From a virus (lineage: Duplodnaviria > Heunggongvirae > Uroviricota > Caudoviricetes), in the IMG/VR virus record IMGVR_UViG_2778261036_000014: a stretch of DNA of 22,388 nucleotides, one strand, 5' to 3'. Below are positions 2,016 through 21,943 of the stretch, piece after piece (position 1 is the first letter of the stretch; each line of letters opens with the position of its first letter). Under the pieces are notes generated by a model, which worked only from the letters and a program-made list of their open reading frames with translations, ran no database searches and was not told the origin of the DNA. A program made the position numbers and the translations under genes.

Positions 2016-2205
2016 GACCGCATAACCTCCTGCTTTGTTGTTGATGCCTTTCTCATGCAATCGATCGACAAAAACGATCGATTCGATTTGTTTAATTGAT
2101 ACAACAAATAGATTGAAAAGTCATCAACAATGATTCAGGGAGGTGATTATTTACTTAAAGAAAACGAAGAGTTAGGTGGTGAAAACGATCATAAAATGAT
2201 CATTT
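2016..2205 (-). promoter_or_regulatory. com-mom upstream control region with clustered GATC (Dam) sites
   Basis: GATC at 2063, 2076, 2187 and 2198; the first two sit in the palindromic stretch aatCGATCGacaaaaaCGATCGatt roughly 50-65 bp upstream of the com ATG. Mu mom transcription is known to be controlled by Dam methylation of upstream GATC sites. Confidence 0.4.
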
Positions 2206-2267
2206 TATTGACTTTTTATACAGTGAAGGTAGGATCACGCGTATATGTAGTATGTTTCAAATCAACA

Positions 2268-2314
2268 GGATACTACATAAAAGTGAAACCCAGCATAGCT
2301 GGAACTATGCTGGG
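2268..2314 (-). terminator. Putative rho-independent terminator (minus strand) upstream of the com-mom control region
   Basis: Perfect 10-bp stem CCCAGCATAG / CTATGCTGGG with a 6-nt loop (2289-2314), followed on the minus strand by UUUCACUUUUAUG. On the plus strand it is not followed by a U-run. Confidence 0.45.
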
Positions 2315-2426
2315 TCAATCTGTAAAAACTTGCATCAATGCTTTACTTCGAGCTCGTGGCGTATCCTATGATATTCCCCGGTCTCCTGTAAAGCAGAGAT
2401 GCATAAAAAGGAGATCTTTATCATGG

Positions 2427-2594
2427 ATGAAAGAGCCTGTTTGCCCTGCCTGTAAGACTCCCTTACAGCTCATCTATCGCCGTTCTCGATCTCAAAATGG
2501 CAAGACATACAAACCCAAAAATGCTTCCTGTTTCAGGATGCTGATATGTCCTGCCTGTTCTCCCAGGAGGGAAAATACACAAAACGTGCATTAA
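2427..2594 (+). CDS. Hypothetical small zinc-ribbon protein (two CPAC motifs); reading frame is open from 2130 so the true start is uncertain
   Basis: AAGGAG at 2408-2413, 13 nt before the ATG at 2427. Product MKEPVCPACKTPLQLIYRRSRSQNGKTYKPKNASCFRMLICPACS... has CPAC-x27-CPAC. A possible sigma70 promoter (TTGACT 2208-2213, 16 bp, TAGGAT 2230-2235) lies upstream. The 5' part of the long ORF is AT-rich and may be non-coding. Confidence 0.35.
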   Translation: MKEPVCPACKTPLQLIYRRSRSQNGKTYKPKNASCFRMLICPACSPRRENTQNVH

Positions 2595-2632: not shown

Positions 2633-2878
2633 TTACATCATAGTACCGTCAGTTCCGGGCTGAACCGGCTCTGGTTGCTCTACGGGTTGAGGATCATTTT
2701 CCGTGCTGTTTTCAGCCGGAGAACGGCCAACCATTCGGGCCAGCACTTCATCAACATATGCGTCGATTTGTGCCTCAAAATCCTTGCGAACCTGCGCCTT
2801 CAGCACGCGGTTCACTTCTTCAGAATAAAGTGCCTGTTTGACAAGCTCTTCAGTAACCGTGCCTTTAATCTCTGGCAT
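2633..2878 (-). CDS. Hypothetical 81-aa acidic protein with predicted helical N-half and Pro/Glu-rich C-tail
   Basis: AAAGGAGA about 7 nt upstream of the ATG; hairpin immediately after the stop. No family recognised. Confidence 0.55.
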   Translation of the reverse strand: MPEIKGTVTEELVKQALYSEEVNRVLKAQVRKDFEAQIDAYVDEVLARMVGRSPAENSTENDPQPVEQPEPVQPGTDGTMM

Positions 2879-2913: not shown

Positions 2914-3096
2914 TCAGAGCGGGGTCGGGTCGTTTGGGGATGACGGTGCCTGTGCTGTTTTACTGAGTTTTTCAGCTGCCGCATCATCAATTTTACGGCG
3001 AATATAATTTCTGATGACCTTATAACCACCGCTCACCAGATATAACGCACTGACCACAGCGCAGAAATAAAGCAGCATTGTATGAACGAATGTCAT
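2914..3096 (-). CDS. Hypothetical 60-aa protein with one N-terminal hydrophobic (transmembrane-like) segment and a basic tail
   Basis: AAGGTAAGG a few nt upstream of the ATG. Hydrophobic stretch MLLYFCAVVSALYLVSGGY followed by KVIRNYIRRKIDD. Sits 35 nt upstream of the 81-aa ORF on the same strand, so probably a two-gene operon. Confidence 0.5.
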   Translation of the reverse strand: MTFVHTMLLYFCAVVSALYLVSGGYKVIRNYIRRKIDDAAAEKLSKTAQAPSSPNDPTPL

Positions 3097-3164: not shown

Positions 3165-3245
3165 ACTCCTTCGGGAGTATTTTTATTTTCCTTTATGGGT
3201 TAGGTAGCTCCCGCCAGCCATATCATGACCGGCGGGATTTTTTTA
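3165..3245 (+). terminator. Two tandem plus-strand intrinsic terminator-like hairpins immediately 3' of the nanS-like gene
   Basis: ACTCC-TTCG-GGAGT followed by ATTTTTATTTTCC (3165-3191), and CCCGCCAG...CCGGCGGG followed by ATTTTTTTA (3210-3245). Both have T-runs only on the plus strand, yet no convincing plus-strand gene lies upstream. Confidence 0.4.
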
Positions 3246-5282
3246 TTCTGTTACCGCTTTTTTCACTTCCACCACAATGCTGTCAATCAGCACCGGGTAA
3301 GTTGCATTTTTTGTGATATCCGTTACGCGGAGTTTGTCCACCGGGAAAGTTCCTACTGGTGACTGCGTCAGGGTAAACGCGGCACCATCCTGACCATCAA
3401 TAACCGGAATAACCTGAAGGCTGTTATTTCCTGCAAAACGGAAGGCCAGCGTATGCCATTCATTATCAAATGCACCAAAGGTTCCCAGTTTCTGGTTATT
3501 TGTTGCCACTTTTGCATTGTGGTACATCACATTCAGGTCTTTTGCGTCTGTCTGGATGTAGAACGATGCCAGCAGATTATTCCCTGCATCCCCTGTCAGG
3601 GTGACACCCTGCGGCAGAGAGGAAACCGGCCAGTAAAGCCCCATGACATACTGGTTTGCCACCAGGTCGCCAGGTACTTTAAAACGACAACTGATTAAAC
3701 CACCATTTTTCAGCAGTTCAGCACCAGTACCGGCATCATGATCCAGATACCAAGATGATTTACCTGTTTCCTTGGTCAGTTTCATTGCCTTACCACCTGT
3801 GCCTCCTGCATCACTGATAATTTCAGCTTTACCGCCAGCCGGCTCCCAGCCCTGGGCTTTCAGATTTCCTTCTGACTCACTGACACGATAAGACAGCAGT
3901 GTTGTGGTTACTGCTTCAGTTTCTGAAGGTGACGGCACTGGTGCTTCAGTTTCAGAAGATGGAACATCGGCTTTTACTGTGGTTCGCCCCGCATGAGTCA
4001 GAACTGCCGTGGCCAGACGGTCGGAAATAATCCCACGACGTGCCCATGAACTGAAATGGCTGGCCCGGTCCGCAGATGTCCAGGTGGCGGCACTGTTACG
4101 CCACGTTGAGCCGTAATAACCAATGGATTCAATATCCGGGTCTTCTGCCGGATTGTTGGTGGGTACATTCGCGTCATTTTCATCTGTCATTAATGGAACG
4201 AAATGAATGTTTTTATCTGTTTTGTTTTTGTAGCCGCCATAGATTGCCTGGTATGCCGGTTCATTTTTCTGTTTCCAGAAATACGTGGTATCGCCACAAA
4301 TCCACGGAACGCCAGCAGCACTGCCACCGGTACACTGTTCCGCCTGTTCAGCCAGGTCTGCGCGGAATTTTTCCACCATCGCCAGAAACAGCGCGGAATG
4401 CTCCGTCGGCTTCGCATCAATATCAAACTCGCCCTGCATCCACACCACAGCAAGCAGGCGGTTTTTCGGGTTCTTCGCCAGTGCCGCTTTTGTCCGGCTG
4501 ATTAAGTCCTTATACAGCGGCTTATCCACACCCCAGCGGGCTGAGTCCTCTGAAGCACCCGTGCTGTCACTGTACGTGCCGTCAGCACCCGCCGTGAATG
4601 CAGAACCACCACGGCAGCAGGGAACCAGCAGAATCCCCGCATCTGCCGGAATAAACGGCAGCAGTTTTTTGGCAATGTGAAGCCCCTGACCCACGGTGCC
4701 ATATTGCCCTTTAGCCACATCCGCTTTCGGGTGATTTTTTCCACTCATATCCTGCACATCATGCAGACAGTGGTCGGCCAGAATGATGTCGTTATACTGA
4801 CAGGCTTTACCTCCCGGCGTGACTGTACTGCGACGGGCTAACTGCATAATACGCGGTTCGGGGCGGTCATATGTCTCCGGCAGTGGCAGACCTTCACCGT
4901 AAGCCATACCGTTTGACTGACCAGCAAGAACCACCACGTAATACCAGGAAGGGGAGCTGGAAGCAGTTTCATTTCCTGACGGACGGGTATGTGTTTCAGC
5001 ATTATCCCAGTCTGACGGTTCAGCAGTACCGGCAACATCAGCACTTAACGGAATGACCGCACCAATACCCGCTCCGGTAATTTCCACACTCGGATCACCG
5101 GATACTGGCCTTACCCACAGGCAATCCCGTGTATTAAAACTGATGAGACAGTCAGCAAATGTCATTCCTCCTTTTGTTTCGGCCGGAGGAAAGGGAGCCT
5201 CAAGAAATGCCGCTGTACCACCGGAAACTTTAACAGTAAAGTTTCCGGGCATTGATGATAGTTGAACCCATTTGGACGTCAT
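3243..5282 (-). CDS. nanS: NanS-like sialate (9-O-acetyl-N-acetylneuraminate) O-acetylesterase, prophage-encoded NanS-p type, with extra N- and C-terminal regions
   Basis: Central region YYVVVLAGQSNGMAYGEGLPLPETYDRPEPRIMQLARRS...ILLVPCCRGGSAFTAG...WMQGEFD...WICGDTTYFWK...HFSSWARRGIISDRL closely matches my recollection of E. coli NanS (YjhS) and the GQSN motif of SGNH/SASA esterases. About 115 aa precede and about 250 aa follow the esterase core. AGGAACAGG lies upstream of the ATG. Confidence 0.8.
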   Translation of the reverse strand: MTSKWVQLSSMPGNFTVKVSGGTAAFLEAPFPPAETKGGMTFADCLISFNTRDCLWVRPVSGDPSVEITGAGIGAVIPLSADVAGTAEPSDWDNAETHTRPSGNETASSSPSWYYVVVLAGQSNGMAYGEGLPLPETYDRPEPRIMQLARRSTVTPGGKACQYNDIILADHCLHDVQDMSGKNHPKADVAKGQYGTVGQGLHIAKKLLPFIPADAGILLVPCCRGGSAFTAGADGTYSDSTGASEDSARWGVDKPLYKDLISRTKAALAKNPKNRLLAVVWMQGEFDIDAKPTEHSALFLAMVEKFRADLAEQAEQCTGGSAAGVPWICGDTTYFWKQKNEPAYQAIYGGYKNKTDKNIHFVPLMTDENDANVPTNNPAEDPDIESIGYYGSTWRNSAATWTSADRASHFSSWARRGIISDRLATAVLTHAGRTTVKADVPSSETEAPVPSPSETEAVTTTLLSYRVSESEGNLKAQGWEPAGGKAEIISDAGGTGGKAMKLTKETGKSSWYLDHDAGTGAELLKNGGLISCRFKVPGDLVANQYVMGLYWPVSSLPQGVTLTGDAGNNLLASFYIQTDAKDLNVMYHNAKVATNNQKLGTFGAFDNEWHTLAFRFAGNNSLQVIPVIDGQDGAAFTLTQSPVGTFPVDKLRVTDITKNATYPVLIDSIVVEVKKAVTE

Positions 5283-5381: not shown

Positions 5382-5942
5382 TTATTTTTCCGAAACGCTC
5401 GCAGGATAATAACGATAAAGGGTTGAAAGGCCGATATCAAAAATAAGTGCCACCTGTCTTCGACTGACACCCCCGGCCAGTAAACGCCCGACCTGCTCGT
5501 ATTGTTCCTGCGTGAGACGACGGGGTCTGCCGCCGGTTCGTCCCCTTTCACGGGCAGCTGCAAGACCAGCCCGTGTCCGTTCGACAATTAATTCACGCTC
5601 CATTTCTGCCAGCGCACCCATTATGTGAAAAAAGAAGCGCCCCATGGGGGTTGACGTATCAATGTTGTCAGTAAGACTACGAAAATTTATCCCCTGTTGC
5701 TGTAATTCATCTGTCAGCGCAACAAGGTGGCGCATACTGCGCCCCAGCCTGTCCAGTTTCCAGACCATCAGTGTGTCACCGGGTTTTAGTTTCTTCAGTG
5801 CCCGCTTCAGTCCCGGCCGCTGTGTCGTTTTACCACTCATTTTATCTTCAAAAATCTGCTCACATCCTGCACATTCCAGCGCATTTCTTTGTAAACCTGT
5901 GTTCTGGTCATTTGTTGATACGCGTATATAGCCAATCAGCAT
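5382..5942 (-). CDS. pin: Serine-recombinase DNA invertase of the Pin/Gin/Hin/Cin family
   Basis: Product MLIGYIRVSTNDQNTGLQRNALECAGCEQIFEDKMSG...WKLDRLGRSM...GINFRSLTDNIDTSTPMGRFFFHIMGALAEMERELIVERT is near-identical in pattern to e14 Pin / Mu Gin as I recall them. AGGAAGG lies about 8 nt upstream of the ATG. Sits directly adjacent to a gix-like site. Confidence 0.9.
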   Translation of the reverse strand: MLIGYIRVSTNDQNTGLQRNALECAGCEQIFEDKMSGKTTQRPGLKRALKKLKPGDTLMVWKLDRLGRSMRHLVALTDELQQQGINFRSLTDNIDTSTPMGRFFFHIMGALAEMERELIVERTRAGLAAARERGRTGGRPRRLTQEQYEQVGRLLAGGVSRRQVALIFDIGLSTLYRYYPASVSEK

Positions 5943-5996
5943 GTATTTACCTTCCTTAAAAAGAGGTGGAAAGGCCTTTTAAAGCAGATATACGGC

Positions 5997-6022
5997 ATCC
6001 CTGAAACCTCGGTTTACGGGAT
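5997..6022. other. gix/pix-like invertase crossover site A (pin-proximal)
   Basis: ATCCCTGAAACC-TC-GGTTTACGGGAT; its reverse complement ATCCCGTAAACC-GA-GGTTTCAGGGAT resembles the Mu gix sequence TTCCTGTAAACC-GA-GGTTTTGGATAA (recalled). In inverted orientation relative to site B. Confidence 0.6.
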
Positions 6023-6367
6023 ACTGTAAACAGGGCCGCGAATGCCCTGCCATCGAACGGAGCGGCTGTTGCAGCGAATAAACTCGCCACTCCAAGAAAT
6101 ATTAATGGTGTCCCATTTGACGGAACGCAGGATATAAATATTACATCGGGGATGACGCAGTCTGTGGCTGACTCACGTTATGTTCAAAGCATTCGAAGAG
6201 GTTCAAGGTCAACGATTGGAATGCAATATAATATTTTTGAGGTTCCTGACGGATGCGTACTTACAGGGCTTGATGTCGCTGGTGATGGTAATGCAACGGT
6301 AACCGCATATTATCGACCTGTTCAGTTTCTGATAGATGGTTCGTGGAAAACAGCTTCCAGCGCATAA
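6011..6367 (+). CDS. Promoterless alternative tail-fibre C-terminal cassette (Sv'-like); would be fused in frame to the constant part of the tail fibre after inversion
   Basis: Frame open from 6005: NLGLRDTVNRAANALPSNGAAVAANKLATPRNINGVPFDGTQDINITSGMTQSVADSRYVQ...YYRPVQFLIDGSWKTASSA. The N-terminal ~50 residues parallel residues ~180-230 of the expressed tail fibre, while the downstream part diverges. No start codon or RBS at its 5' end. Confidence 0.6.
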   Translation, partial: GLRDTVNRAANALPSNGAAVAANKLATPRNINGVPFDGTQDINITSGMTQSVADSRYVQSIRRGSRSTIGMQYNIFEVPDGCVLTGLDVAGDGNATVTAYYRPVQFLIDGSWKTASSA

Positions 6368-6446
6368 AAGTGCAGTAGTTCAAAAAACAGATTATCTGAA
6401 TAAATATATGATGATTTTGTCTTTTCAACAAAAACAAGGTGAAATA

Positions 6447-6968
6447 ATGGAGCTTATTAACGTAAAACGATATTACCCGGAACACAAACCCTATGGTGAG
6501 GATGTTCAGTATTTCCAGAGTGAGGACGGAAGGGATTTTTATGAATCTATCCCGCTTTTCACAAAGAAATACAAACTCTGTATTTCGCCTGTAACGGGTA
6601 TTATCTGCTCTGTTGCTGAAGATGTCTCTGCTTTATATCCGGCAGGTTTTACTGTTGTTGAAGTGGACGAACTGCCGGAAGGTGTGAATATTGACGGTAA
6701 CTGGCAGTTTTCTGATGGCCTGATATCAAAGGTGCCGGTAAACTGGAAGACGGTTGCTGAAAAGCGCCGCTCATCGCTGCTCCAGGAAGCCAACGAAACT
6801 GTGGATGACTGGAAAACGGAATTAAAACTGGACATGATTAGCGATGAAAATAAATTACAGCTGACGCGCTGGATGGCGTATATCCGACAGCTTAAAGAAA
6901 TGCACTTTAATGATATTGCCAGTGAGGGGCATTACCAGGCGATTCCCTGGCCGGAAAAACCGGAATAA
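6447..6968 (+). CDS. Tail fibre assembly protein (Tfa/U-like chaperone) belonging to the silent cassette
   Basis: AAGGTGA before the ATG at 6447; about 173 aa, typical Tfa size; lies 80 bp downstream of the Sv' cassette inside the invertible segment; followed by a hairpin terminator. Confidence 0.75.
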   Translation: MELINVKRYYPEHKPYGEDVQYFQSEDGRDFYESIPLFTKKYKLCISPVTGIICSVAEDVSALYPAGFTVVEVDELPEGVNIDGNWQFSDGLISKVPVNWKTVAEKRRSSLLQEANETVDDWKTELKLDMISDENKLQLTRWMAYIRQLKEMHFNDIASEGHYQAIPWPEKPE

Positions 6969-6973
6969 TTCAG

Positions 6974-6996
6974 AGGGTGCATTCAGCACCCTTTTC
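6974..6996. terminator. Hairpin terminator between the convergent tfa and tail-fibre genes
   Basis: 7-bp stem AGGGTGC / GCACCCT with a 5-nt loop followed by TTTT on the plus strand; weaker U-tail on the minus strand. Confidence 0.5.
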
Positions 6997-7002
6997 TGTG
7001 GT

Positions 7003-7914
7003 TTACACTGAACTTACCGTTCTCCAGGCATTATTAATATAAATCTGAACCGGGCGATAATAGACCCCACCGATATTGTCCGCAGACCGGGAGCCGGTTT
7101 CCTGCACGTTAATTCCGGAAAGCATACAACCGGAAGGTGCGCTGTAATTCCATGACATTTCATTGCCTCCGGGTGAATGATAGCTCTGTGCTCCAAGCTG
7201 AACATTCTGTACATACCGGCCATCTGCGGTTGACTGCGTCATTCCTGACGTGATGTTGATATCCAGCGTTCCGTCAAAAGGAACACCATTAATATTTCTT
7301 GGGGTGGCGAGTCTGTTTGCTGCCACGGCGGTTCCACCCGATGGCAGGGCATCAGCAGCCTTATTTACCGTTTCCCGTAAACCGACGTTATCGATAAAAG
7401 CGCCTTTATCCGGAATGTCTGCGCCGTTCTGCTCCCTGCGCAGGTAACGGTTATCACCTTCGCTTTTGCTGTAAACATCCAGATTATTACGGGCGGTTCC
7501 CGCATTCTCCAGGTCGGCAAGGTTCTGATCCTTCGCCAGAGCATTAACGTCACCGGGACCAAGACTGTTTTTTGTGGCAAGCGCCCCAAGACCAAGATAA
7601 CCACGGGCAAGACGCTGGGCTTCCGCACCGGCATCAGCAATTTCTTTCAGGTTGTTTTTCCGGGAAAAGGCATTCGCAGCGATAATGGCTTTAATGGACA
7701 GCGTAAGCTGGTTTAACTGCGCCTTATCCGGCTGAATACTGGCTTCAGCCAGAATATTCAGCAGTTCGGCCTGGAGAATATTCAGCCAGTCCTGACCAAT
7801 CCAGCTGATACCTTTTTGTCCGTCACCTTCGGTAAACCAGGTGGTGGTATTACTCTGCGCCGGTGCCAGCGCAGGCATATTCGCCACGCCGGAATTATTA
7901 TCAACATGGAACAT
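7003..7914 (-). CDS. Tail fibre protein, currently expressed form (constant part ~7914-7398 plus variable C-terminal part ~7384-7003)
   Basis: ATG at 7912-7914 overlaps the upstream gene stop (TAATG) with GAAGAGGAG upstream. The C-terminus ...GGVYYRPVQIYINNAWRTVSSV resembles the C-terminal motif of P2 H / Mu S tail fibres as I recall them. A gix-like site lies inside the gene. Confidence 0.75.
   Translation of the reverse strand: MFHVDNNSGVANMPALAPAQSNTTTWFTEGDGQKGISWIGQDWLNILQAELLNILAEASIQPDKAQLNQLTLSIKAIIAANAFSRKNNLKEIADAGAEAQRLARGYLGLGALATKNSLGPGDVNALAKDQNLADLENAGTARNNLDVYSKSEGDNRYLRREQNGADIPDKGAFIDNVGLRETVNKAADALPSGGTAVAANRLATPRNINGVPFDGTLDINITSGMTQSTADGRYVQNVQLGAQSYHSPGGNEMSWNYSAPSGCMLSGINVQETGSRSADNIGGVYYRPVQIYINNAWRTVSSV
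7372..7397. other. gix/pix-like invertase crossover site B (within the tail-fibre gene)
   Basis: TTCCCGTAAACC-GA-CGTTATCGATAA; the left half matches the recalled Mu gix half-site TTCCTGTAAACC at 11 of 12 positions and the central dinucleotide is GA. Confidence 0.65.
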
Positions 7915-11705: not shown

Positions 11706-13059
11706 TAATCACCTCCACTGAATGGCCTCCGGGAATGAACAGCGGATCAACAATACCGTTACGGCGCACAAAACGTTGCCAGCCGGTACTGTTCCCGGTG
11801 GCACGGTACAGGGTCACCAGTGCAGGCTCGGTGGTACGTACAGTCACTACTGTTGCACCGGGTAGCTGAACTCCCCGTGTATTCAGATCCTCTGTCAGTG
11901 CCAGTCTGGCATCACGAAGCGTCAGCGCCGTGGCGGTATACCCCTGCCCGGACAGTGTCATCACCTGCCGTTCGAGCGCTTCGCTTAAGTCACGGTTAAT
12001 GCGCTGAAGATCAACTGAACTTTCCAGCCAGACAGGCCAGGTACGGTGGGCTGCGTCACTGTCCGGCAGGGTTTCCTGACTGAGAACCTGATCCAGCAGT
12101 TTTCCCACGGTCTGTGCCTGGGCCACCACGGCAGCACTCTGCATTACCGCCCGTATCAGACGAATATTCTTTTGTGCTGCCGGTGTCAGACCGATGAGAG
12201 TCTGCGGATTATCCTGCTCATCCAGCACGTAACGCAGGGAAGATAATGTCCTGTACAGTTGCGGCATTCCCTGAGAGAAGGCGGATGTCGTCCGGCCGAT
12301 ACTGCCACCGGGCCGGGTATTCAGGCCTCCTGAAGACAGTGACGGCAGCGATGGCAGGGTGATCAGGGCACTGAAAAGCCCCGCAAAAGATGAGGCCATG
12401 CGGGAAGGTGCTGTCAGTAATGCCGTGGCATTCCCTTTCAGCGCCGTGAACGTGGCAGTAAAGGCACTGATATCCTGTACAATCCCCATGCCGGAAACGG
12501 CATTTTCCAGGGCGGACACCTTATCGCTGATGGTTTCGGTCATTGCCTGGACATCGTGCATTCCGTCAGAAATCACCGTCCAGCCCGCTTCCAGGGTTTC
12601 AAAAACCTTCCCGAGCGCGGTGGTACTCTTCTGCTCCAGAATGGCGGCCGTGTCCTGTGTGACAGCAGGTGCGGTATCATCACTTACCGGCGTGACATTA
12701 ATGGTGAACTCAACCACGCCCTGTTCAGCAGCGTTATAACGACTTTCAAAGCTGTTTATCAGCACATTTAACGTGCCGTAATCCGGGTGAAGCAGCTCCC
12801 CGGCACCGGGAGCACGAAGGGCATCACGCAGACGATTTCGCTGTGTCTGAACATCATCCCCCATCACAAGTACACTGAACGTAAATTCAGCCAGTTTAGG
12901 TCCCAGATCGTCTGCACCACCGGTTTCCCGTAACGGATATTCCCGACGGACAATGTTTCGCCCGCCACGTTCGCGCTGCTCACGCCAGACGAGGAACGGC
13001 ACACCACGGAACGCACCACGACCGTCACCAGAGGCCATAATTCCCTCCGTTCCAGACAT
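11689..13059 (-). CDS. Mu N-like DNA circularisation protein (gp43)
   Basis: 456 aa immediately downstream of the tape measure gene, as in Mu. Start could be 13059 or the internal Met at 13038. Confidence 0.65.
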   Translation of the reverse strand: MSGTEGIMASGDGRGAFRGVPFLVWREQRERGGRNIVRREYPLRETGGADDLGPKLAEFTFSVLVMGDDVQTQRNRLRDALRAPGAGELLHPDYGTLNVLINSFESRYNAAEQGVVEFTINVTPVSDDTAPAVTQDTAAILEQKSTTALGKVFETLEAGWTVISDGMHDVQAMTETISDKVSALENAVSGMGIVQDISAFTATFTALKGNATALLTAPSRMASSFAGLFSALITLPSLPSLSSGGLNTRPGGSIGRTTSAFSQGMPQLYRTLSSLRYVLDEQDNPQTLIGLTPAAQKNIRLIRAVMQSAAVVAQAQTVGKLLDQVLSQETLPDSDAAHRTWPVWLESSVDLQRINRDLSEALERQVMTLSGQGYTATALTLRDARLALTEDLNTRGVQLPGATVVTVRTTEPALVTLYRATGNSTGWQRFVRRNGIVDPLFIPGGHSVEVISEQQG

Positions 13060-20169: not shown

Positions 20170-21293
20170 TATTGCATTTCCTCTTTCATTTTCAGGAACT
20201 CGGCTTCGGTTTTACCCAGCAGTTTGGCGGCCGCGATATCTTCAGCCGACAGCGCAGCGGTGGCAGTCTTTTTATCCGGCACGGTCACGGTGTCGGTCTG
20301 AAGAGAGGTCAGGGCCGCAACCGGCTGGCGGGCGTCAAGCTGTGCAGAAAGTGCCGCAACGCCAATCTGCCCGCCCAGTTGTTCCAGATAGCCGCGTTCG
20401 CTTTTGAAGATGCGCCCTTCGGATTCAGCCTTGTCCAGCACCTGCTCCAGCGTGGTGCTGCCGTGCTGCGCCGACAGCGCAACGTATTCGGTACGCAGGG
20501 CGTTATACGTTTCAACGGGCACGTATTTCGTCAGATCAATAATGCCGCCAGCCGGTGTGCCTTTTGCGGTTTCCAGCTCTGCCGACAGACTGGCGACCTG
20601 TGTTTTCAGGTTGTCGTGTGCATCCGCACGGGTTTTGATCCCGGTGAGGGCAGACAGCGCCGCCGTGCCCAGCTCCGGCGTAAATTCGTCACCGTCAGCC
20701 ACGGTCAGACCGAGCGCCGTCAGCAACTGGCGTAATTGCTCATTCATGGAGGTATCCTTTAAAGGAGGGTTTAAGGCGTTATAAAGGTCATCCGCCGACA
20801 GCGCGGCGACAGGATTCATGCCGGTCAGACCGGGGTCACCGGTAATAGCCAGCATCCGAAGTTCGACAGGTTCGCCGGTGTTCTCGTCATAGCCAATCAC
20901 CGGTGAAAACCAGGGGAATTCGTTATTACGCAGATGTTCAAGGGCCGGAGGGTTCCACTTCGGGCGCACCTCGAAGCCACGCTCTTCACTGAAGCGAAAA
21001 TTCTCCGGTGAGGCCATCACAAAACCGGCAGCCGGTGCCTGATGCCCCTTAATCAGGGTCTGGTGGTTGTAGTCAATTTTCACCGGCTGATTGAGCGCCA
21101 CAACCCGGGATACCATGCGCTCAACGGTCGCACGGTTAATCAGCCAGCCCTCGGCCGGTTTTTCCGGGCGACCGTCACGGGCCTTTACCCGACCGGCTGG
21201 CATGATCTGACACCAGTCACCGTCCCCGTCTGCGGACAGGCTGATGGCATTCAGAATGGCATAAGCAAGTTTGGGCGTGTTTTTCGTCTTCAT
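20169..21293 (-). CDS. I: Head maturation protease / scaffold protein (Mu I-like)
   Basis: 374 aa immediately upstream of the major capsid gene with an overlapping stop/start, as in Mu I. Confidence 0.75.
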   Translation of the reverse strand: MKTKNTPKLAYAILNAISLSADGDGDWCQIMPAGRVKARDGRPEKPAEGWLINRATVERMVSRVVALNQPVKIDYNHQTLIKGHQAPAAGFVMASPENFRFSEERGFEVRPKWNPPALEHLRNNEFPWFSPVIGYDENTGEPVELRMLAITGDPGLTGMNPVAALSADDLYNALNPPLKDTSMNEQLRQLLTALGLTVADGDEFTPELGTAALSALTGIKTRADAHDNLKTQVASLSAELETAKGTPAGGIIDLTKYVPVETYNALRTEYVALSAQHGSTTLEQVLDKAESEGRIFKSERGYLEQLGGQIGVAALSAQLDARQPVAALTSLQTDTVTVPDKKTATAALSAEDIAAAKLLGKTEAEFLKMKEEMQ

Positions 21294-21436
21294 TCCGGCA
21301 GCATAAGCCGGGAATTTTCAGGGCGGGTTTTGCGGGATTTCAGGAAGTGCTTCCAGGGGAAAAATACAAAGGCGCTTCACGCAGATTTTAAAGCCCGTTA
21401 AATACAGGTTAGAAAATCACGACACGCGCCTGAAGG

Positions 21437-21461
21437 GGGTAAGGTAATGCATTTGCATACC
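21437..21461. promoter_or_regulatory. Dyad-symmetry element in the G-I intergenic region; candidate operator of a late promoter
   Basis: TAAGGTAATGCATTTGCATACCTTA: 7-bp outer inverted repeat TAAGGTA / TACCTTA around a palindromic core. Lies about 145 bp upstream of the I-like start in a 177-bp gap; Mu has a C-activated late promoter upstream of I. Confidence 0.3.
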
Positions 21462-21469
21462 TTAAACAA

Positions 21470-21943
21470 TTAAGGCGTTTCTGTGGCCTTTTTAAAGCGT
21501 TTTCTGATTTCGTCCATGATCTCCTGCTCTGCCACCTGATCAAAGCCCATATACGGGCGTGCGCCAATGGCCGCCGGTCCCGGTGGCATACCAGGCAGGC
21601 CACCCCACTGATGAATGGCCGCATAAGGCTCATTTGATCCAATCAGCGCCCAGGTATCGCCATAATCCGTGGTCAGGCGTCGGGCCAGATCGCCGTTCAG
21701 CGTCAGGATTTTGCCGGGCATGTATCCCTTACGGGTACGCCACTTGCGGTAAGGATCTGACCAGTCATGCCAGCGTTCGCCGTCCGGCTCTTTTTCCTGT
21801 TCAAACGCCATTTCTGACGATGACAGAAGACTCGCCGCCACACTGCGGGCCAGGTCTTTCCCTCCACCCACAAACTGAAGCCGGGCAAAGACCCGCTGGA
21901 GACGCGTAACGTCAACAACGACAGCGGCATCAATGGATGACAT
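21470..21943 (-). CDS. Mu G-like virion morphogenesis protein (gp31)
   Basis: 157 aa; GGAGG upstream of the ATG; position between the F-like and I-like genes. Confidence 0.65.
   Translation of the reverse strand: MSSIDAAVVVDVTRLQRVFARLQFVGGGKDLARSVAASLLSSSEMAFEQEKEPDGERWHDWSDPYRKWRTRKGYMPGKILTLNGDLARRLTTDYGDTWALIGSNEPYAAIHQWGGLPGMPPGPAAIGARPYMGFDQVAEQEIMDEIRKRFKKATETP

Follow-up and report, generated by a model that had tools for sequence, protein, structure and literature searches.

The C segment of phage P1, served by the invertase Cin, and the P segment of e14, served by Pin, are switches in which an invertase gene adjoins an exchangeable tail-fibre C-terminus with 26-bp crossover sites. 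The Min system of plasmid p15B is a multi-cassette inversion, in which the cassettes outnumber the chaperone genes. In the G segment of phage Mu, served by Gin, the 5' part of the tail-fibre gene S is constant and lies outside the segment, in-frame alternative 3' cassettes lie inside it, and each cassette is followed by its own tail-fibre assembly gene (tfa). As a close relative of the Mu system, we consider here the tail-fibre switch of the Mu-like prophage Sp18 of enterohaemorrhagic Escherichia coli (EHEC) O157:H7, carried by a stretch of 22,388 nucleotides (IMG/VR record IMGVR_UViG_2778261036_000014, Caudoviricetes; "the window" means the whole of this stretch, and coordinates refer to it unless another locus is named). 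It is very probable that this switch is real and works like Mu G/Gin, and its main difference from Mu is that the two cassettes are accompanied by one tfa and not by two.

The switch is an already known system: the invertible host-specificity region of Sp18 was noted by Asadulghani et al. (2009), where, in the accessible part of the paper, it stands without discussion of the single tfa and without inversion data. As a close relative of Mu G/Gin in a region noted in 2009, the switch itself adds little. In the literature that was searched, we found neither the single-tfa layout discussed nor its conservation or its recurrence together with a spacer, and we present the one-chaperone part as a modest, testable addition and not as a new kind of system.

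Comparison of the Sp18 locus with the Mu G segment

The order of the genes is as in Mu, with gp47, gp48, S, the invertible segment, the invertase gene, com and mom. The invertase gene is found at 5382-5942 on the minus strand (186 residues; ECs_4992 in strain Sakai, where it is annotated "DNA-invertase") and its product is 76% identical to Mu Gin over 181 residues, with Pfam matches to Resolvase (PF00239, 1.4e-51) and HTH_7 (PF02796, 1.7e-14) and a PHROG match to DNA invertase. Invertases of the Gin, Hin, Pin and Cin group have about 190 residues and an active-site serine near residue 9-10; the Sp18 protein is likewise a small serine recombinase with an N-terminal catalytic domain and a C-terminal helix-turn-helix, and its N-terminus, MLIGYIRVSTNDQ, is conserved with Gin.

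The preliminary description of this DNA, made from its letters alone, had placed two inverted 26-bp gix-like sites on either side of the segment, and our analysis confirms both. Site A (5997-6022), which adjoins the invertase gene, reads ATCCCTGAAACC TC GGTTTACGGGAT, and site B (7372-7397), inside the tail-fibre gene, reads TTATCGATAACG TC GGTTTACGGGAA on the reverse complement; on the plus strand the central dinucleotide is thus TC in one and GA in the other. Over a core of 13 bp, TCGGTTTACGGGA, the two sites are identical, the central TC being part of it, and by manual count they match Mu gix (TTATCCAAAACCTCGGTTTACAGGAA) at 19 (site A) and 22 (site B) of 26 positions. As with the sites of Gin, Hin, Pin and Cin, there are two inverted copies of 26 bp with imperfect 12-bp half-sites and an identical central dinucleotide. 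Both are located at the same codon of S as in Mu, that of the G-segment boundary (...IQNLGLQETVN in Mu, ...IDNVGLRETVN in Sp18), and form the outer ends of a 182-nucleotide inverted repeat that is 79% complementary (6005-6186 and 7208-7389). A loose version of the core pattern is not significant alone (12 matches in the window, 9.75 expected) and the exact core has one occurrence in the window, which contains no plausible third crossover site. The invertible segment itself extends over the 1377 bp between the central dinucleotides (6009-7385), and its in-silico flip matches sequenced genomes, as described below.

The tail-fibre gene S occupies 7003-7914 on the minus strand (303 residues; ECs_4989 in Sakai). 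Its constant N-terminal part (7384-7914, minus strand, 177 residues) is 46% identical to residues 1-191 of Mu S and matches PDB entry 5YVQ_A (4.3e-49) and the tail fiber family phrog_1833. The expressed cassette, Sv1 (7003-7383, minus strand, 126 residues), has no tfa downstream on its own strand, and the silent cassette, Sv2 (6011-6367, plus strand, 118 residues), is promoterless, lacks a start codon of its own and is fused to the constant part after inversion. As in Mu, the constant 5' part of the gene thus lies outside the segment and the alternative 3' cassettes lie inside it, both in frame with the crossover and with translations open in both orientations. The two cassettes are 57% identical; their alignment is nearly perfect over the first 55 residues or so and then divergent, which agrees with the common start and later divergence that had been read from the sequence at the outset. 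Both receptor-binding tips (approximately the last 70 residues) are homologous to the tip of Mu S, at about 40% identity; the latter was crystallised with its chaperone (PDB 5YVQ). As the tips of Sv1 and Sv2 are only about 37% identical to each other, flipping most likely changes the host range, as it does in Mu. Among four diverged variants, the ratio of nonsynonymous to synonymous substitution rates (dN/dS) of Sv1 is 0.06-0.18, as low as that of the constant part and of tfa, which indicates that Sv1 is a working coding cassette under purifying selection.

By contrast with Mu, the Sp18 segment is short (1.38 kb against 3 kb), its cassettes encode about 120 residues against about 330, its tfa is preceded by a spacer of 79 nucleotides against 2 nucleotides, and a module with a NanS-p-like esterase gene is inserted between the invertase gene and com/mom. 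The Mu-type prophage of E. coli FDAARGOS_1059, which is similar to D108, also has an invertase gene beside a fibre C-terminal switch with 26-bp sites; this prophage, the P1 C segment and the e14 P segment all differ from Sp18 in having two convergent tfa genes, each 1-2 nucleotides from its cassette.

Both orientations of the segment in sequenced genomes

We built the flipped form by reverse-complementing 6009-7385 and searched it against 5,426 complete E. coli genomes. It matches genomes that include FORC_044, O157:H7 2-6-2 and 07_3636 without a break over 3201 bp, at 100.0% identity; in all, 182 of the complete genomes have the orientation of the window and 26 the flipped one. The genome of 07_3636 (NZ_CP074928.1) carries two copies, at 4689392-4692592 and 2102378-2105578, which have opposite orientations of the segment and are each 100% identical to the corresponding form. 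Flipped genomes annotate the 295-residue fusion of S with Sv2 that the flip predicts, followed by tfa on the same strand, and the reading frame of the plus-strand cassette is intact across the crossover. In a collection of 15 billion proteins from public assemblies, the exact S-Sv1 protein is present in at least 1000 contigs and the exact S-Sv2 protein in 153, and among the IMG/VR contigs of the Sp18 family tfa is opposite to the fibre gene in 12 and co-oriented with it in 4. Since both orientations are found in genomes, inversion happens in nature, and with an adjacent invertase so close to Gin the identification as a tail-fibre switch of the Gin/Pin type, already proposed in the preliminary description, is well founded. 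The prophage of CP066032, cited by Milman et al. (2023) for a Mu-type inversion confirmed by long reads, was considered as a further case and set aside, being a canonical two-tfa prophage and not of the Sp18 type.

The Gin-type invertase (5382-5942) would thus recombine the inverted sites at 5997-6022 and 7372-7397 and flip the 1377 bp between them, joining the constant 177 residues in frame either to Sv1 or to Sv2, of about 120 residues each. Invertase systems of the Gin, Hin, Pin and Cin group have a Fis-bound enhancer in cis, usually within the 5' portion of the invertase gene. By analogy with Mu, the reaction is expected to depend on Fis and on a recombinational enhancer (sis), which we take to be located in the part of Mu gin that aligns with 5840-5942 (minus strand), the 5' part of the invertase gene. 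The first 100 nucleotides or so of the gene show long identical runs with Mu gin and with a Citrobacter invertase gene; the same nucleotides also encode the conserved catalytic N-terminus, and their conservation is not specific to an enhancer.

The two orientations might also have arisen by RecA-dependent recombination within the 182-nucleotide repeats, or by assembly error, the invertase and its sites being fossils; the arms are 79% identical over 182 nucleotides and the orientations are found in a skewed ratio, as such an origin would allow. We regard it as extremely unlikely. The flanks of the core differ at the two sites and yet the flipped form matches at 100%, so the exchange must be confined to the 13-bp core, which argues for site-specific recombination and against a RecA-type exchange in the arms: all near-identical flipped genomes match the flip exactly at the site centres, the core is too short for RecA, and longer stretches of identity in the arms have been left unused. 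In addition, the invertase open reading frame (ORF) is intact and 98-100% conserved, and flipped forms are found in diverged relatives and in IMG/VR contigs as well.

Several points nevertheless weigh against a switch that is active and in every respect like that of Mu. The left half-site of B (TTATCGATAACG) deviates from the Mu half-site at three positions, and the enhancer at 5840-5942 is a candidate assigned by its position. The ratio of the orientations is skewed to about 7:1, which could reflect slow or biased inversion or else the shared ancestry of the strains, and what can be said of its rate and of its activity today comes from the comparison of genomes. Apart from the switch itself, control of the late genes appears to differ from that of Mu: four Mu promoters, Plys, PI, PP and Pmom, have a C-box in common, taken as CATAACCCC, which does not occur on the late-gene strand of the window, and no clear common motif is seen in the stretches that should contain the late promoters (2010-2140, 11990-12160 and 21290-21475, minus strand). 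Late activation in Sp18 therefore probably uses another recognition sequence.

A single tail-fibre assembly gene behind the silent cassette

The window contains a single tfa, at 6447-6968 on the plus strand (173 residues; ECs_4990 in Sakai), behind Sv2. Its product matches Pfam Caudo_TAP (PF02413, 1.9e-18), the tail fiber assembly family phrog_136 (1.1e-57) and chain B of PDB 5YVQ (2.3e-15) and is 28% identical to Mu U; it aligns with Mu U and U' and with the G protein of P2-type phages, with a predicted fibre-binding N domain and a conserved C domain, and is a predicted chaperone by its family membership. Whereas in the Mu G segment each cassette has its own assembly gene, the only Caudo_TAP gene here is the one behind Sv2. 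That only the silent cassette carries such a gene had been remarked on before our searches, and the same arrangement is kept in the relatives of Sp18.

Between the stop codon of Sv2 and the start of tfa lies an AT-rich spacer of 79 nucleotides (6368-6446, plus strand, GC content 0.26), a candidate for an independent tfa promoter. On the other side of tfa, between it and the convergent fibre gene, a hairpin at 6972-6994 was identified by a terminator scan as the plus-strand terminator of this gene. Its folding energies are -17.8 kcal/mol on one strand and -20.1 kcal/mol on the other (z about -3.5), and it has a U-tract on the plus strand only. The preliminary description had the expressed cassette end at a terminator with no chaperone behind it; the absence of a tfa behind Sv1 stands, and the terminator has to be reassigned, since its U-tract lies on the strand of tfa and not on that of the fibre gene. 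Given a U-tract on the plus strand only, late transcription would stop after tfa in the flipped state; in the state of the window, it may read through antisense to tfa and into the invertase and esterase genes. If the hairpin is one-directional, such read-through into the invertase gene and the NanS-p-like esterase gene would take place only in the Sv1 orientation. A 98-residue antisense ORF (6539-6835) was examined as a hidden accessory gene behind Sv1 and rejected, as it is closed in a diverged tfa allele.

Conservation and recurrence of the one-tfa layout

Relatives of Sp18 at 84-93% nucleotide identity keep the one-tfa layout, as does a sub-family whose invertase is only 81% identical; judged from these relatives, the one-chaperone layout is not a recent accident. 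Within the Sp18 family (L004-L006 against L003), the locus is a mosaic in which Sv1 is nearly constant and Sv2 is of two tip types that are 38% identical, one of them 57-59% identical to the tip of Mu S. The distance between Sv1 and Sv2 (37%) is thus about the same as that between interchangeable Sv2 tips. The tfa gene has at least two alleles in the family and these have recombined independently of the tips: nearly identical Tfa proteins (97-99%) accompany Sv2 tips with only 38% identity to each other, and tips with 97% identity go with Tfa alleles whose N domains share 74% and whose C domains share 49% identity. From this mosaic of alleles and tips, Tfa and tip are only loosely coupled.

In order to place this layout among other switches, we surveyed 51 IMG/VR loci around Gin-like invertases with at least 3.5 kb of upstream sequence. 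Two convergent tfa genes were found in 18 loci and 16 were one-tfa loci of the Sp18 family; of the rest, 8 had one detected tfa and 9 none detected. In the 18 two-tfa loci, nearly all tfa genes start between -4 and +20 nucleotides from the cassette stop, and in Mu and the D108-like prophage the gap is 1-2 nucleotides. By contrast, in all truly single-tfa systems examined, tfa is preceded by an AT-rich spacer of 51-121 nucleotides: 79 and 120-121 in the Sp18 family, 51 in the sub-family with the 81% identical invertase, 72 in locus L104 and 69 in Citrobacter braakii. These spacers have a GC content of 0.21-0.39 and contain -10-like hexamers without a good -35 element.

The last two of these systems resemble Sp18 in having more cassettes than chaperone genes, with three cassettes, three sites and one tfa, whereas Sp18 has only two sites and two cassettes. 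In C. braakii ATCC 51113, at a related fibre locus of the Mu type (L008, 4819-7223), three gix-like sites (4819, 6846 and 7212) and three cassettes are accompanied by a single tfa of 229 residues (5480-6169, minus strand), a bidirectional terminator with a 17-bp stem (5428-5464) and an invertase gene (7293-7871). One of the two possible inversions would put two cassettes upstream of the single tfa, and the locus is, by its predicted sites and cassettes, a nested, multiple-inversion version of the Sp18 design. L104 (3812-5903) and the similar L115 have a P2-like fibre gene with one expressed and two silent cassettes, a single tfa behind such a spacer and an adjacent Gin-like invertase gene; they belong to other fibre families than Sp18, with tips ending in ...FNYIVRA. 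When species-representative genomes were scanned for the fibre protein, only two useful relatives were obtained, one from Citrobacter and one on a truncated Edwardsiella contig, the remaining matches sharing only the common NINGVPFDG fibre repeat.

Three further loci (L109, L101 and L122) were dropped as one-tfa systems, their second cassette being followed by an unrelated ORF of 90 residues. In L109 (5407-5929; the other two are similar), this ORF is part of a P2-like switch, is unrelated to Caudo_TAP and may encode a different kind of fibre accessory protein.

Assembly of the Sv1 fibre

By the layout of the locus, only the Sv2 orientation puts tfa and the fibre gene in one transcript. As a natural system, the one-chaperone layout therefore asks whether a generalist Tfa serves several tips or whether some tips of the Mu/P2 type assemble and work uncapped by Tfa. 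The answer, whichever it is, matters for engineering the host ranges of phages and tailocins, and the layout bears on the spread of this Mu-like prophage among EHEC serotypes. We lean, tentatively and with somewhat less than even confidence, to a single Tfa for both tips, made whichever way the segment lies or supplied in trans. Its promoter would lie in the AT-rich spacer and invert together with tfa; alternatively, this Tfa would be supplemented by the Tfa proteins of other prophages. Such a shared Tfa is at least as likely as a chaperone-independent Sv1, because the same Tfa allele is found behind tips that are 38% identical; it is further supported by the loose coupling of Tfa and tip, by the correlation of a single tfa with a spacer, by the occurrence of Sv1-type tips with a tfa elsewhere and by the prevalence of the Sv1 orientation. 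It is also made plausible by C. braakii, where two cassettes would share one tfa after inversion.

A promoter in the spacer has to be set against several results that do not favour it. A sigma-70 scan gave no promoter above threshold in 6368-6446, and a looser scan found -10-like hexamers with a poor -35, which is weak evidence either way. The missing Mu C-box and the lack of a common late-promoter motif, described above, also count against it. The spacer types of the Sp18 family (79 and 120 nucleotides) are unrelated in sequence, and one two-tfa locus of the survey (L116) has a gap of 118 nucleotides before one of its tfa genes. Moreover, in the orientation of the window, a tfa transcript starting in the spacer would converge with the late operon.

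It is possible, if on balance unlikely, that the Sv1 fibre folds and trimerises without Tfa, in which case the two orientations would differ in chaperone dependence and in the presence of a Tfa cap as well as in receptor specificity. Diverged relatives likewise have no tfa behind Sv1, purifying selection acts on Sv1, the Sv1 orientation is the commoner one in lysogens, and the failure of the sigma-70 scan to find a tfa promoter is in keeping with this account. The Tfa of Mu reportedly stays with the virion and has a part in recognising the receptor (PMC9608196), and for this reason having or lacking Tfa could in itself change the specificity. The homologues of Sv1 point the other way: the tip of Mu S, to which that of Sv1 is homologous, was solved together with Tfa (5YVQ), the H fibres of P2-like phages have tips with 55-64% identity to Sv1 and gene G/tfa directly after them, and the Sv1-like cassette of C. 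braakii has a tfa downstream. The short tail fibre of phiTE (PDB 9CUY), which has an Sv1-like tip, was also consulted and is uninformative on the Tfa cap, only its N-terminus being modelled. These same pairings of Sv1-type tips with tfa, together with a tfa on the opposite strand that has no detectable promoter, could instead mean that Sv1 needs Tfa and gets none, the particles being poorly infectious or defective in their fibres and the switch an on/off control of infectivity. This we consider improbable in view of the strong purifying selection on Sv1 (dN/dS as given above) and the recurrence of the same layout in unrelated fibre families. Furthermore, most lysogens, at several independent insertion sites, are in the Sv1 orientation; if inversion is slow, as in Mu, a lysogen would inherit its orientation from the infecting particle, which would then have been infectious with Sv1.

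Returning to the shared Tfa, its generalisation to other loci is a more doubtful matter. That Sp18 stands for a recurrent and undescribed class of single-tfa switches with an orientation-independent promoter, or else for a toggle between Tfa-capped and uncapped fibres or for orientation-dependent read-through, we would not expect, though it deserves consideration. In the first case, a single tfa with a spacer promoter would serve two or three interchangeable tips; in the case of a toggle, host range would depend on whether the fibre has the chaperone or lacks it, in addition to the sequence of the tip.

Prophage setting and neighbouring genes

The window is identified as Sp18 by its sequence: in the search of complete E. 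coli genomes, the region is 100% identical to a prophage of many EHEC genomes, and its gene content comprises Mu-type tail and baseplate genes, com, mom, the invertase gene, tfa and the fibre gene. The Sp18 of Sakai shares both the gene set and the orientation of the window; its genes ECs_4989 to ECs_4992 bear the annotations tail fiber, tail fiber assembly protein, tail fiber protein (fragment) and DNA-invertase. There is no structural difference between the two, which are the same element, and only the insertion site varies by strain: Sp18 lies within sorM in Sakai, adjoins frvB in FDAARGOS_293, occupies the prpD/prpE interval in FRIK804 and is near rimJ in strain 2-6-2. Variable chromosomal sites are expected, because the phage transposes.

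One ORF of 154 residues (2130-2594, plus strand), annotated as hypothetical, is oriented against all of the prophage genes around it; its sole match is phrog_26524, of unassigned function.

Between the invertase gene and com/mom, a gene at 3243-5282 (minus strand) encodes a protein of 679 residues with a SASA domain (sialate O-acetylesterase) and, at its C-terminus, DUF6645, in which Pfam reports no N-terminal DUF1737 domain. It is followed by genes for DUF1378 (2914-3096, minus strand) and DUF826 (2633-2878, minus strand) proteins. Lambdoid Stx phages have a similar module, nanS-p, downstream of stx, and the one here looks like lambdoid cargo inside a Mu-like prophage.

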